DNA of 64,000 nucleotides, taken from NCBI GenBank assembly GCA_964016885.1, contig OZ024741.1, positions 207,886,001 through 207,950,000 on the forward strand. The letters are read 5' to 3'. A program made the position numbers and the translations under genes. Origin of the DNA: Eledone cirrhosa (taxonomy: Eukaryota). Below, in pieces: positions 7,047-47,820 of this stretch (its first letter is position 1; the number at the start of each line of letters is the position of its first letter). The notes beneath the pieces were generated by a model. The model did no database searches. It had not been told where the DNA came from and saw only the letters and a list, made by a program, of their open reading frames with translations.

Positions 7047-7262
7047 AAGAACAAAACAAGATCTAAGGCCGTTACATGGTTTAACGCGCCGTATTCTAAG
7101 CATGTATGCAGCAATGTATCAGGCCTCTTTTTCCGAGCGTTGGACGAGTGCTTCCCGCCGTCGAACAGATACCACAAGATTTTCAACCGCCACACGGTGA
7201 AGTTTTCCGTCTCCGCAGCACCTAACATGGCCTACTACATGGCCAAAACTAACGCGGCGAAG
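7047..7262 (+). mobile_element. PLE coding fragment (RT-to-endonuclease linker, Naiad-like)
   Basis: Frame absent from the ORF track: KNKTRSKAVTWFNAPYSKHVCSNVSGLFFRALDECFPPSNRYHKIFNRHTVKFSVSAAPNMA, resembling the WFNPPYS..KIFNRNTVKVSYS linker of PLEs. Confidence 0.8.
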
Positions 7263-7792
7263 ATGTATATGTTCACCTTAAATGATTATATGTTCACCTT
7301 AAATGTGTGTGTATAGCGGGAGTCTATGCGTACGACTGTCGTTATCTATGTGTGTGTGTGTGTGTGAGTGCGCGCGTGGACGTGTGAACTACCAAACCCA
7401 GCAGTAATTCATTGAAGTGTGGCAGGTACGGTGGTCAGCCAAGCGATACTTGTGGACGTAGACACCTAGTGGCCAATAACAGGTGGCACGAAGAGGATGA
7501 AGTTTTTGTGACTAATACCCCAGTGAAAAAATTTGCTCCGAAATCTTTAGAAGTGTCCGTCGAGCCTGCGGATCCAGAATCAGAGAGATCCACACAATGA
7601 TCGCGTCTCGAGCTGTCCGCTGGCGAAACAATTGTAACACACAATAAATTGAGTTCAGATGCATCACTGATTTTTCGTTTTCTATTCTAACATACTCTGC
7701 TCTGTAGGAGCATAGAATGCTCAACCGGCATACCTCCTATGGAAGCATCTTAGCTACCATCAGACACACACACACACACATATATATATATT

Positions 7793-8068
7793 TCGTTTCT
7801 GAATTTCTTTATCTGAAAACGTGTGTTGAAACCGATAGGAGAGGCACAAAAACAAAGAAAAGAATCCCCAGTCACTGAAGAGGTCACAGAATGTGTGACG
7901 AAAGAATTTTGACAATATATGAACAACCGTCCGGTTTTGGAACCAACCAACCAATCAGAAATTTATAAATTCTTAAATTTATAAATTTAATTTATAATAA
8001 ATTATAGTGAAAGCTACTGGTGCATGTGTTTCTTATTGGCAACATGAGACCTCCTAAAGTATAACAAT
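7793..8068 (+). mobile_element. PLE pseudo-LTR family B: inverted tail plus truncated pseudo-LTR, HHR at 7871-7913
   Basis: Matches the 57050-58440 arms. HHR: GTCA-CTGAAGA-G-GTCACA gaatg TGTGAC-GAAA-GAAT-TT-TGAC. Confidence 0.8.
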
Positions 8069-8199
8069 ATATATATATATATACATATATATTTACATAC
8101 ACATATATATATATATATATACCTATATATATATATATATTTATATATGTATATACATACATATACATATACGTATATATTTATATATATATATACATA

Positions 8200-8840
8200 T
8201 GTATGTATACGTACATACATATATGTATACAGACGTACAGTAATATGTATATATATACATACATGCACATAATATATATGCACGTATCGGTTTACTGAAC
8301 ATTTATTATAATGCTCGGTTTCTTTGTTTGTAAACAATTTAAGTAAGTGCCGTACTAAGAGTGAGAAATGAAATTTTGTTTCATTCTATTCCATTTATCG
8401 TTTTCGGTGTGCTCGGCCGACTGAACTCACTCGATATGCAAATGAGGTTGCTCAGCCGTTAATATGCATAAGGAAAGTATATACTTACAGACGTTCAGCC
8501 ATCTGGCAGGAAGGTATACGATGCTGACGATAGCCAATAAGCATGAAACTAGTACATCGTTCCTGTGTCAGTGTTGAACAAAAAGGTGAGTTGGTTGCCT
8601 AAACACTGTACGGCGTAATTCGGGCTGTTTGTTTGTTTACAAACAAACCGATCATTATAATAAATGTTCGGTAAACCGATACGTGCATATATATATGTGT
8701 GCATGTATGTATATATATACATACTACTGTACGTCTGTATACATATATGTATGTACGTATACATACATACATACTTACATTTAAGTAAGTGCCATACTAA
8801 GAGTGAGAAATGAAATTTCGTTTCATTCTATTACATTTAT
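8200..8840 (+). mobile_element. Retrozyme-like element (442 nt period) with inverted 5' segment and ~49 bp flanking duplication
   Basis: Direct repeat starting at 8341 and 8783; 8200-8337 is an inverted copy of about 8630-8770; 8151-8199 equals 8841-8889; second copy at 40354-40970. Confidence 0.75.
8518..8560 (+). ncRNA. Minimal type I hammerhead ribozyme (GUA site)
   Basis: ACGATG-CTGACGA-TAGC caataa GCAT-GAAA-CTAG-TA-CATCGT: perfect 6-bp stem I, palindromic stem III, weak stem II. Confidence 0.75.
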
Positions 8841-34050: not shown

Positions 34051-35916
34051 ATATTTATTAAATAACAGATTAAAGTTTAAGCAAAGAATCGCTGCTTTCA
34101 CCCTTAACGGGATCTTCTGAAACTAACAAAGTCAATCTGTAAACGCAGAACTGGATATTTCAAAAAACGTTGCAACCGGAGGAAGACAGGAAGACGATAC
34201 TTTGGTTCGTGGTAACGTTCGCTGGCAAAGAACGGGAAAAAACGAATAATACGTCATTAATAGGAGCGGTGAAAAACAATTACGCGCAAAGACAAAACCA
34301 CGTTTATGGTATAAAAGAGGTCGTAGACTAATGTTCTCTTAGGTGGTGCATAGAGACGTTCTCTGGCAATGAACGAAAAAACGAAGATAATAAGTCATAT
34401 GTGGAGCGTGGAGAACAATAGCACGCAAAGACAAAACCACGTAAATGGTATAGCAGAAATCGTAGACTAAAATTCTAACTAGGAGACCAAATGAATCTCC
34501 GCTACAGAGTTAAGAACAAAGTAAATAAATACAATACAGATGTAATAGGAACAAATAAATACATACACGCAAACAGATACGTACATACACAAGCATACGC
34601 AAAACCTTACCAAGGGTATACAAAACCACGCACATATAAATATGTGTGTGTGTGTATGCTTGTGTCCAAATAAATAAGTAATTATATAAACGTATATAAG
34701 CAAATAAATACGTATATAACAAGCGCACACGCATACCTACATATAAATACACGAATGTTCGGAGACGTAAGTCAACTAAAACAAGAAGTACACATATACA
34801 CACACCCACCATACGTACGAACCTGCACACTCACGCGGACGCAAAACTCCCGTATACACATAGCCAAACCCTAAATACCAGAATATGTAAAAATTATACG
34901 CTATAACAGTCAAATATACGTACGAGAAGGTATACATACCTTCACAAAACATACGGGTAATATATACTTACCTATGCAAATAAGTAAAGGAATAAACAAA
35001 ACATATACTTAGCTCCCACATCAAGACGTAAAATATCCACGTATAGATCGTGCTATCCGTTAGGGTATAACGTGGGGCTGTAATACAGGAAAGTTTTGTG
35101 CAATTTATGTTTACAAGCCGAAATTGCCTCAGATTTTTTGTTTAAGATGTGGTCTGTAGCGTAGAGTATTTCCAGGGCCTCAGCGGCGCAGAGGTCACAT
35201 GGTCTTTTATTTCCGTTATACGATCTAGCCCTAGCTAGGATCTCCCAGTGTAACTTATATTGGGTGTGGTTGTCTTTTAGACTCCAGATATAAGCTGAAA
35301 GTGACGTCATATTCCTTCTTAGAGGGTAACGAAAAGAGTGGGTATGCATGTAAAGACGCTGCTTGAAACTATTGGCGGTTAACCCTATGTAGGCCCTGGT
35401 CTCCTAGTTAGAATTTTAGTCTACGATTTCTGCTATACCATTTACGTGGTTTTGTCTTTGCGTGCTATTGTTCTCCACGCTCCACATATGACTTATTATC
35501 TTCGTTTTTTCGTTCATTGCCAGAGAACGTCTCTATGCACCACCTAAGAGAACATTAGTCTACGACCTCTTTTATACCATAAACGTGGTTTTGTCTTTGC
35601 GCGTAATTGTTTTTCACCGCTCCTATTAATGACGTATTATTCGTTTTTCCCGTTCTTTGCCAGCGAACGTTACCACGAACCAAAGTATCGTCTTCCTGTC
35701 TTCCTCCGGTTGCAACGTTTTTTGAAATATCCAGTTCTGCGTTTACAGATTGACTTTGTTAGTTTCAGAAGATCCCGTTAAGGGTGAAAGCAGCGATTCT
35801 TTGCTTAAACTTTAATCTGTTATTTAATAAATATTTGCTCTACGGTTCTTATATATTTGATATATATTTTCCTTATCGAGCCCTCTTTGGATTTTAGTCT
35901 TCAATTTTATTATTAT

Positions 35917-40323: not shown

Positions 40324-40353
40324 CGTATATATATATATACATATATATATATA

Positions 40354-40970
40354 CAAACACACCGAGCATTATAATAAATGTTCGGTGAATCCATACGTAC
40401 ATATATATATGTGTGCATGTATGTATATATATACATACTACTGTACGTGTGTATACATATATGTATGTACGTATACATAATTATTTTTAAGAAACAGCCG
40501 TACTAAGAGTGAGAAATGAAATTCCGTTTCATTTTTTCCGTTTATCGTTTTCGGTGCGCCCGGCCGATTAACTCATTCGATATGCAAATTAGGGTGCTCA
40601 GCCGTTAATATGCATAAGGAAAGTATATACTGTCAGACGTTCAATCATCTGGCTGGAAGGTATACGGTGCTGACGATAGCTAATAAGTTTGAAACTAGTA
40701 CATCGTTCCTTTGTCAATGCTGAACAAAAGGGCAGCGATGGTAGCTAAACACTGTACGGCTTAATTCAGGCTGTTTGTTTACAATCACACCGAGCATTAT
40801 AATAAATGTTCGGTGAATCCATACGTACATATATATACGTGTGCATGTATGTATATATACACATACTACTGTACTTACATATATGTATGTACGTATACAT
40901 ACTTATATGTAAGTAACAGCCGTACTAAGCGTGAGAAATGAAATTTCGTTTCATTTTTTTTTTCCGTTCA
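40354..40970 (+). mobile_element. Retrozyme-like element, about 1.4 monomers (428 nt period), HHR at 40664-40706
   Basis: accgagcattataataaatg at 40361 and 40789. HHR: ACGGTG-CTGACGA-TAGC taataa GTTT-GAAA-CTAG-TA-CATCGT. Confidence 0.78.
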
Positions 40971-43741: not shown

Positions 43742-46700
43742 TATTAAAGAGTTAAACAAGATTCAATGAGTACATCTAAGACTGAGTTTACAGTAGATTG
43801 GAAGCACTCTATTAGAGATATTTTCCAGAGTTATTAATATTAATTCAAATATTAATAAAATAGATATTCTTGTAATCAATTAAATTTTATTATACATATT
43901 TCAGAGCTATTGAATCAAGTTCAACAGTACGTCCTCATCAGATAAAATAAAATGATACATGACATACCCTGACATGTTAGATGGTTAAGATTTAATCAAG
44001 GTAGTGATTAACTTATGAGAAAACTCAATATTTATACCCTAATATTGAGAACATGCGAAAACATAATAGAGACAGTGTGAGTAAGAAAAACATTGCCTTA
44101 ATGCAACAGTTATAGAGTTTTTAAAATTTGAAATACTACTCTAGAACTGTAGAGGAAGACGTATCTGGAGTTATAATTTATTTAGTATTTAGCTTGAGAA
44201 TACAACTGACAGATAATTAAAGAAAGGGAGAGACAATGGGGAGTAATTTATGCTCAAATTTTCTTTGGACACATAAACATATATAGCTCTGGCGGTTAAA
44301 TTTCAAAATAGTTAATTTATGTTATTTTAGGGTAAAGAATCAAAATTTTAGGTTTTAAAAGTTGATGGTTATTTGTATTAATTTTATAATATAATTGTGT
44401 TAAATTTCTAAAATTCAAAGTTTTATGAAAACAAATTTTAAGGATATACGAGGCCCGCGAAAAAAGAAATATTCAATATTCTTACAAAGGTAATCTTTAA
44501 CAAAATTACTTATAACACTGACAACATTTTCTATAATATAATTTATGAGATATTTACAGTTATAACTATTAAGGAATTTATTGTTAAATAGTTACAGTGC
44601 CTAAAGTATTAGCAGGTCTTATAATTAAACCTAAAGAGGTCAGAGTTTTCAGCTATATATATATATGTGTGTATTGATCATAATATCAAGACTATAATTT
44701 GTTATCTGTTCATATATTATATTAAGTCATTATATTAGTTCTACCTTCTAGGGAAGACCGAACTCTAATTATGATTATGTTATTATACAATATAAATATA
44801 TTTCTACAAACTATATATAGAGATATATCCCGAACTATAATTATGATTATGTTATTATACAATATAAACATATTTGCACAAACTATATATAGAGATATAC
44901 TAAGTATTAATGAGACGGTATACATTTAATAAAGAATAACTATTATAATCTTTGTTAGTAGTTTCGTACATGCGTAACTACGATTATGTTATTACACTAA
45001 ATAAAGATATTTGCACAAACTATACATTGATATACTAGATATTAATAAGACGGTATATATCCAATAAAACATAGCGATTAGAAACACTGTTAGTAGTTCT
45101 ACCTCCAGTTCAGTGGAGATATAAACCAATATTTGTCTGCTAATATTGTTTGTTATAAATACATAAAAAGCAAAGCGTAAAGCCAACTTTCTGAGTCTTC
45201 AAAAACCATCTCCAAATGAGTAAAATACATATATATATATAAAATACATACATATATATAAAAATGTAAACGCATGAATGATCCACAGTTCAAATTAAAG
45301 TCAGTAAAATTTACAGGTTAGATATCTAAACTATATATTTAAAATAGAGATAGAAAAATAAAGATCTGAATCAAAGTTTAAAATATCCAAAAAGCCATAG
45401 GTTATGCATATCCAACCTGCAAACAATTTATTAAACAAGTGTCACTCATTCAAACATTATTTCAATTATAAATGATTAGAAGATAAAGCATTATTAAAGC
45501 TGTTATGATTTATATGTTCAACAGTTGATGATGTACGTCTAAAAACCAGGCTTGGTTGCTTACTGTTTTTTCCTGACTTTATGCGAGGCTTGGAATGTAG
45601 ATAAAGCTTTATGAAGGCAGTTTGAGAATAATTCACTTTTTTGTTAATTAAGTTTTCATAAATATTAATTATCAATAGGGTCTCCATTGTACAGAGGGCA
45701 CAGTTACTTGATATACTTGAGTTGCGGTAAACTCCACTATTACAAAGTTTCGTCCAAAAGATCGAGTATTTTAAATTTTATAACTGATTTAGTTCTGGTT
45801 CTTTTCCTCGATTTGTTCACAGTATAGGTGTTTGAATTATAATTACTAGAATTTATAGAATTTCGTTTATATATGCCATTATTTTTATCAGGATTAAAAC
45901 TTGGATTATTATTATCTACATATTCTATATAATTCTCAAAACCTGCTCTTTTTAGCGCTTCATTGTAATATCCTGCATTTTCATCAAATATTGCTTTATT
46001 GGCAGATATTCTATTAATGCGTTTTTGCACACTATTTACAATTGCTTTTTTTACTGACTTAGGGTGATTGGAGTAATAACTAACGTAATTTAAGTTTTCA
46101 AAGGGTAATAAAAGCCAGAGTTTAAGTTAAACGTAACTTCAAGGAAATTAACTATTTTGGTACCACTTTCTACTTCTAGCTTAAGGTTTTAAAGAATTCA
46201 ATTATATTTTTCTTTACTCTATTTAGTTCAATATCGTTGTGTTTGACAACCGTAAATAAAATGTCGTCCCTATATAAACCACCGGTAACCTCCGGCAGTT
46301 TTCTATTTATCATATTTAATATGAAAATCCCCAGAAGATCCGTGATTTGCGCTGAATCAGATGACCCATGGTAATATCAAAATTTCTATTTCTATCTGAG
46401 CGGGTCCAATACTCATTGACGAGGTTAATAAGAGTTCTTCTAGCTGTTAATATGATATCAATTTCATCCGTGGTTAGATCAGTATGCTTGTAAGCGTATG
46501 ATAGAGCCTTATTTAGTAGGTTGGGCGTTATGGAAGAATAATAGCTTGTTATGAATTTACGGTTTTTCTTATCATCTATATTCAATGACTTCGTTTGTAT
46601 CTTTCCACAAGCTCAATTTAGACCTCAATTTCAGAGCAGGTAGAATTCTATCAATAATGTTTTTACTGATTACTCAAATATCCGATTTGGATGGAGAAAT

Positions 46701-47820
46701 TCTAACTGGCAGGTCTTCCTCGAAGTTTCTTTTGTGATCTTTTAAGTTGATCCGCGGCTGTCTAGGTATAAGTGGCTCTGTTCTTCCTTCGATTCCTAAT
46801 TTGGTAATTAATTTATATGCATCATCATTAATGTCTGTAAGATCATCAGCCGGGGCTTTTTTTATAATTTTTCCTAACTTAATCATAATTAGAGTTCGGT
46901 CTTCTCTAGAAGGTAGAACTAATATAATGACTTAATATAATATATGAACAAATAATAAATTATAGTCTTGATATTATGATCAATACACACACATATATAT
47001 ATATATATATAGCTGAAAACTCTGACCTCTTTAGATTTAATTATAAGACTTGCTAATACTTTAGGCAATGTAACTATTTAACAATAAATTCCTTAATAGT
47101 TATAACTGTAAATATCTCATAAATTATATTATAGAAAATGTTGTCAGTGTTACAAGTAATTTTGCTAAAGATTACCTTTGAGAATATTGAATATTTTTTT
47201 CTTTCGCGGGCCTCGTAAATACTTTAAATTTGTTGTCATAAAACTTTGAATTTTAGAAATTTAACACAATTATATTATAAAATTAATACAAATAACCATC
47301 AACTTTTAAAACCTAAAATTTTGATTCTTTACCCTAAAATAACATAAATTAACTATTTTGAAATTTAACCGCCAAAGCTATATATGTTTATGTGTCCAAA
47401 GAAAATTTGAGCATAAATTACTCCCCATTGTCTCTCCCTTTCTTTAATTATCTGTCAGTTGTCTTCTCAAGCTAAATACTAAATAAATTATAACTCCAGA
47501 TACGTCTTCCTCTATAGTTCTAGAGTAGTATTTCAAATTTTAAAAACTCTATAACTGTTGCATTAAGGCAATGTTTTTCTTACTCACACTGTCTCTATTA
47601 TGTTTTCGCATGTTCTCAATATTAGGGTATAAATATTGAGTTTTCTCATAAGTTAATCACTACCTTGATTAAATCTTAACCATCTAACATGTCAGGGTAT
47701 GTCATGTATCATTTTATTTTATCTGATGAGGACGTACTGTTGAACTTGATTCAGTAGCTCTGAAATATGTATAATAAAATTTAATTGATCACAAGAATAT
47801 CTATTTTGTTAATATTTGAA

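Follow-up and report, generated by a model that had tools for sequence, protein, structure and literature searches.

The genome of Eledone cirrhosa harbours a large family of non-coding, hammerhead-bearing repeats of ~430 nt, which is probably moved in trans by the reverse transcriptase (RT) and GIY-YIG endonuclease of Penelope-like elements (PLEs), with a circular RNA as template. That these repeats form a non-coding retrozyme family is almost certain, and their mobilisation by PLEs is very likely; judged from sequence, they would be classed as non-LTR retrozymes. Statements on published systems refer here to the available portions of the cited papers. Retrozymes themselves are already known, and PLE mobilisation was suggested for them in 2020 (PMC7229834; PMC7761336) on the basis of co-occurrence and hammerhead type (PMC7761336), while a 2026 preprint argues for it from co-occurrence and pLTR homology (bioRxiv 10.64898/2026.07.22.740005). 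According to the accessible part of a 2020 review, the repeats of animal retrozymes show no motif that reveals the mobilising retrotransposon (PMC7761336). The footprint of PLE insertion on retrozymes was not found in the literature searched. The search, which lay outside subscription journals, Repbase/Dfam and supplements, returned no description of this ~430-nt family and none of the end-and-tail rule in retrozymes presented below.

Two copies in a TA-rich window

The window, a stretch of 64,000 nt from the 3.0-Gb host genome, is rich in TA microsatellites and contains two copies of the element, A and B (Table 1). Their relationship, proposed in the original prediction, is borne out by the direct arms, which match at 434 of 538 alignment columns. 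Copy B is terminally redundant as described, with a period of 428 nt (40352-40537 against 40780-40959, 170/186 identical) that becomes 422 after a 6-nt deletion. For copy A, the proposed period of 442 nt stands, but the redundancy within its direct part covers just 62 nt (8337-8398 against 8779-8840), and the copy is not one direct stretch, as its first segment is an inverted arm that had been overlooked. Similarly, the two copies do share an end point, but the family has two fixed 3' ends rather than one, and copy A, with one tailed and one tail-less arm, obeys the rule that governs them. Copy B has no meaningful ORF, its frames being either 30-44 aa long or low-complexity frames from the flanking microsatellite, and both copies carry a type I hammerhead core with a CTAG stem III and a GUA cleavage site, each as originally predicted.

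Table 1. Features of the two retrozyme copies in the 64-kb window
Feature	Position in window	Strand	Description
Copy A, inverted arm	8198..8337	-	5'-truncated, tail-less 3' end, adjoins TA tract; 132/141 identical to 8633-8769
Copy A, direct arm	8337..8840	+	One 442-nt unit plus second ~60-nt tail; head-to-head with inverted arm
Copy A, type I hammerhead	8518..8560	+	Cleavage predicted after 8554; stem II with two broken pairs
Copy A, tail	8779..8840	+	Spans the two family 3' ends (putative RT start sites); followed by (TA)n
Copy B	40352..40970	+	Single arm of ~1.4 units with tail end; TA tracts on both sides
Copy B, type I hammerhead	40664..40706	+	Predicted cleavage after 40700; core intact, one G.U in stem II
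Copy B, tail	40912..40970	+	Includes hairpin; followed by (TA)n

A genome-wide family and its sister

As the original prediction led one to expect, monomers and multimers of the non-coding hammerhead unit occur throughout the genome, with 24,001 exact matches to a 31-nt core and 15,065 to a 25-mer (0 for either reversed control), far more than chance would yield. The unit measures ~425-440 nt, with measured periods of 422-442 nt, and reaches 466-502 nt in some subfamilies via an internal TA tract. Arrays range from monomers to 7.5-mers, as in L150, where arms of 2.3 and 7.5 units lie head-to-head. Because the 30 best DNA matches were skewed to long copies, we instead took a position-ordered sample, in which the first 100 listed 25-mer matches on C1 yielded 55 loci (15 of the 30 best-match loci, the others having overlapped, and 40 further regions). 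These loci comprise 98 arms, 43 with at least one unit and seven with at least two. A random 200 kb contained one family locus, too few for a density estimate. Terminal redundancy is variable and permuted across loci, and the repeats are therefore not an LTR.

A very young sister family with a unit of 310-312 nt (L175:3109-3151) is represented by 3,693 exact cores. Its hammerhead has the layout of that in the 430-nt family, stems I, II and III having each undergone compensatory changes, and the two units align with a score of 64 (shuffles: mean 8, maximum 45).

The hammerhead and its covariation

Copies A and B combine the CUGANGA and GAAA core with a 6-bp stem I that has a long extension, a stem II of 4 bp above a U.U pair, and a stem III formed by a palindromic CUAG. 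The term "minimal", used in the original prediction for the hammerheads of metazoan non-LTR retrozymes, does not fit this one, with its stem II and extended stem I. Identification rested on motif and covariation: Rfam gave no gathering hits for a hammerhead in the window and, around copy B, none in the 80 matches obtained at E<=10, and linear folding of the isolated ribozyme region was no better than that of shuffles (z 0.2, -1.0, 0.6). Within the 430-nt family, three stem I haplotypes keep one pair as U.G, A-U or G.U. Across nine chosen sequences, a small and related set, 98.3% of cells are paired and 8/13 pairs have changed on both sides, compared with at most 42% paired cells and at most two double-sided pairs in slid controls. 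The hammerhead core is also better conserved than the rest of the unit (98.0% vs 95.4%); it is intact in 76/96 units, and some loci carry two or more successive units that have an intact type I hammerhead. The compensatory changes show that the predicted ribozyme fold is maintained, with the caveat that selection is not needed for a palindromic loop to invert.

Folded as circles, three units are predicted to have strong structure (z -9.7, -5.0 and -6.1 against 40 shuffles). Stem I closes the ligation junction in two of the three, those of L150 and sister units, and the ribozyme is not formed in the predicted circle of copy B.

Other hammerheads were encountered as well. A different type I hammerhead-like motif occurs twice in the window, at 7875 (+) and 57244 (-), the former downstream of a PLE-like fragment at 7059-7286. 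L034, L084, L086, L161 and L032 contain further, distinct hammerheads of type I whose stems are palindromic or long, which suggests several more retrozyme or PLE families.

Two 3' ends and one tail per pair

The 3' ends of the arms concentrate at two fixed points: 44 of 98 lie at the tail end and 43 at a tail-less point ~60 nt upstream, with 11 elsewhere. Nearly all of these standard ends (82/87) are followed by (AT)3 within 30 nt, in tracts where target-site duplications are unreadable, whereas the 5' ends are scattered round the unit. Among 32 head-to-head pairs, 25 have two standard ends and seven have one that is non-standard. Every one of the 25 joins a tailed to a tail-less arm (25/25, including two later duplicates within L131). 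The same rule holds for the sister family, in 14/14 pairs from 18 loci.

ORF-bearing PLEs of this genome served as a control. The ORFs that we take to be PLEs were called from RT and GIY-YIG motifs and from homologues or look-alikes that carry GIY-YIG, RVT_1 and HTH_animal families; a local Pfam scan of the ORFs named no RT domain and gave one sub-threshold GIY-YIG match, and a PDB search with them returned nothing. The sample consists of 80 loci in six families, and five of these loci are seeds found beside retrozyme copies. Members of PLE family 1 end ~35 or ~102 nt past their own hammerhead, with one of each in 4/4 pairs, and those of PLE family 6 have ends ~29 nt apart, again one of each in 3/3 pairs, so that the rule holds in 7/7 control pairs. 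PLE family 2 likewise has two ends, ~75 nt apart.

The protein of a PLE was shown in vitro to cleave AT-rich DNA on both strands and to start reverse transcription internally, at two positions between which the tail lies (PMC11167929). PLE insertions include an inverted, 5'-truncated copy and have the tail at one end only (PMC8557442; PMC3846280). By analogy, the two 3' ends of the retrozyme family would match the two RT start sites seen in vitro (PMC11167929). PLE mobilisation, which the original prediction had drawn from what is thought of other retrozymes, is thus now supported by an insertion footprint in the family itself.

A circular or an uncleaved template

Out of 87 arms scored at the hammerhead cleavage site, 67 read through it, 16 are shorter and four stop within 8 nt of it. 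A pile-up of 5' ends at this site, as expected for a linear cleaved template, was not seen, and two of these four arms are duplicates; the clustering of 9/94 5' ends immediately upstream of the core was not significant (P about 0.055). Since neither end lies at the cleavage site and most arms read through it, the template was not a linear cleaved monomer, and must have been a circle or an uncleaved multimer. We consider a circle reasonably likely. Of four sequencing runs examined as contigs, two of unlabelled type contain the family, and two presumed to be RNA cover just ~40 bases of low complexity and show no junctions, which is uninformative as to expression.

Alternatively, the same PLE-mobilised element could be copied from a linear, uncleaved multimeric transcript, its arrays lengthening by template jumping or DNA duplication and its hammerhead being a passenger or serving another step. 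This is unlikely in our view, even though hammerhead cleavage is dispensable for an anole PLE in vitro, where hammerhead mutants have no effect on insertion and RNA left unprocessed serves as the main substrate (PMC11167929). ORF-bearing PLEs of the Eledone genome form tandems too, with four copies at 3,531-nt spacing on C1, and duplication at the DNA level was seen directly. Block duplications or two-unit repeats occur in arrays of the 430-nt family at L126, L131, L275 and L285, subfamily variants are mixed inside one arm at L130, and L216 also belongs among the arrays with two-unit periodicity, block duplication or mixed haplotypes. Duplicated blocks and mixed variants imply that arrays also change after insertion. 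The two-unit periodicity (ABAB) of L126, L275 and L285, which may stem from duplication of DNA or from a dimeric template, was not accepted as evidence of a dimer circle, its phase not being cleanly kept.

Against a linear template stands, first, the requirement for transcripts with up to 27 intact hammerheads left uncleaved. Second, young arrays are homogeneous in both arms and have array-fixed variants. In the sister family, L213 (C1:52815527-52820794) consists of two arms of ~9 units each, in which 16/16 full units are identical and fixed for a variant otherwise found only in L221, and L212 (G000:C1:36482096-36490619) is a head-to-head array of 27.3 units, with 19/26 identical. Within the 430-nt family, most of the ~30 positions at which L136 departs from the family majority are common to its two arms, and a private variant is present in 8/9 units of L150. 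Third, the compensatory changes speak for a ribozyme fold that is kept. In the sister family, arm length is greater for young arms than for older ones (P=0.003) among loci that were hand-picked and mostly multi-unit, and the near-identical sister arrays are consistent with rolling-circle copying.

Relationship to the ORF-bearing PLEs

The original prediction had itself raised another reading, in which the copies are pLTRs of an ORF-bearing PLE, here 5'-truncated ends (solo pLTRs) of a family outside our sample. PLEs are very abundant in this genome, where each protein query gave 28,320-74,843 candidates, the sampled loci of PLE families 3-5 do not extend to their true 3' ends, and the 2026 preprint derives vertebrate retrozymes from pLTRs (bioRxiv 10.64898/2026.07.22.740005). 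We nevertheless regard this origin as very unlikely. In the 80 loci of six families, the unit was not found as a pLTR: it is present in just 6/75 non-seed loci, at unrelated positions and in one case as a match of only 29 nt, while PLE families 1, 2 and 6 each possess 3' ends different from those of the unit, and families 1 and 3 each a separate hammerhead. The sequence upstream of a unit is a further unit, an inverted arm or flank unrelated to it, and the arms of one or more units counted above also argue against solo pLTRs. The flanks of the 34 unpaired arms share other repeats, with no common sequence at a fixed junction. In the search for a partner, neither the six PLE families nor two relaxed patterns of the hammerhead yielded a pLTR homologous to the unit. 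That the family is a satellite or MITE-like DNA element with no RNA stage is extremely improbable and largely refuted by end polarity. It does form tandem arrays and inverted arms, and duplications at the DNA level occur, but its 3' ends are fixed while 5' truncation is random, its arms end unequally, and its ribozyme is conserved on one strand, all of which are features of retrotransposition.

PLE ORFs beside L014, L015, L021, L022 and L051 were considered as partners and rejected; five different families are represented among them, their orientations vary, and we therefore read them as neighbours in shared TA tracts. By tail length, the focal family (~60 nt) comes closest to PLE family 1 (~67), and the sister family, with its 26-29 nt tail and near-identical copies, pairs with PLE family 6 by both tail length and youth. 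These pairings, in which no sequence similarity was seen, are leads only.

The GIY-YIG end of a member of PLE family 6 lies in the window at 35056-35403 (-). This family is very young, its 150 scored copies being 98-100% identical and some having open frames of 713 aa; its hammerhead-like motif reads CAGAAGA rather than CUGANGA. A frameshifted PLE-like RT fragment occupies 45893-46862 (-). At L022:960-1405, a GIY-YIG fragment of a PLE, on the minus strand, is joined head-to-head to a retrozyme arm at the arm's 5' end, possibly as a chimeric insertion. At L275, G000:C1:5539223-5546500 and L175/L211, PLE family 6 and the 430-nt and 310-nt families are found no more than a few kb apart, apparently via shared TA tracts.

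Proposed cycle and its implications

For the PLE-mobilised retrozyme with a circular template, we propose the following cycle. Arrays of more than one unit would be transcribed by read-through, and hammerhead cleavage would free the monomer, probably as a dimer via the palindromic stem III, while the long stem I would keep the monomer ends together for ligation. The PLE protein would then cleave a (TA)n target on both strands and prime internally, once for each strand, at two sites that lie ~210 and ~270 nt downstream of the position of hammerhead cleavage. Travelling round the circle, the RT could make arms of any length, joined head-to-head, and the arrays may afterwards shrink or duplicate at the DNA level. 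We have moderate confidence in the general form of this proposal, namely that the two families carry direct genomic footprints of animal retrozymes being inserted by the Penelope RT/endonuclease through two-site internal priming on both (TA)n strands and rolling-circle reverse transcription of a hammerhead-made circle.

The end-and-tail rule serves as a signature of the mobilising element that can be scored in any genome. By placing RT priming away from the ribozyme cut, it would tie retrozyme circles to the role of the hammerhead in PLEs. The young 310-nt retrozyme and the young PLE family with a similar ~29-nt tail are a candidate parasite-helper pair for reconstitution of the cycle, and with young, near-identical retrozyme and PLE families present in one genome, the in vitro system that already exists could be used to test it.

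Comparison with known systems

The Eledone family resembles the metazoan non-LTR retrozymes of mussel (350-390 bp) and axolotl (330/350 bp) in its short, non-coding tandem unit of low GC, its one type I hammerhead per unit and its structured predicted circle (PMC7229834). The weak palindromic stem III has a parallel in HHR_Amex1 and the U.U pair at the helix II base one in HHR_Amex2, and the single fixed pair with a palindromic cap recalls amphibian hammerheads that cleave as dimers (PMC7229834). The Eledone family differs in its mostly dispersed arms of 1-2 units, its head-to-head inverted pairs, its two 3' ends that are fixed and internal, and its (TA)n targets, none of which is mentioned in the available text of that account. 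Circles and cleavage were shown for those retrozymes (PMC7229834), whereas the Eledone family is known from its genomic sequence.

Similar to EN+ PLEs (PMC11167929; PMC8557442; PMC3846280), the family forms partial tandems with an inverted 5'-truncated arm and a tail on one arm, uses AT-rich targets and has a type I hammerhead upstream of its 3' ends. It differs from them in lacking an ORF, in a whole unit of ~430 nt and in a tail of ~60 rather than 30-40 nt. Non-autonomous Chlamys elements such as MRC1 (PMC8557442) and the pLTR-derived retrozymes of vertebrates (bioRxiv 10.64898/2026.07.22.740005) are likewise non-coding, with head-to-tail multicopy insertions credited to PLE machinery. Most of the Chlamys elements are described, in the portion of the paper available, as being without canonical hammerheads (PMC8557442). 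For both groups there is generally an autonomous family with which 3' or pLTR sequence is shared, whereas the Eledone retrozymes share none with the six PLE families sampled.
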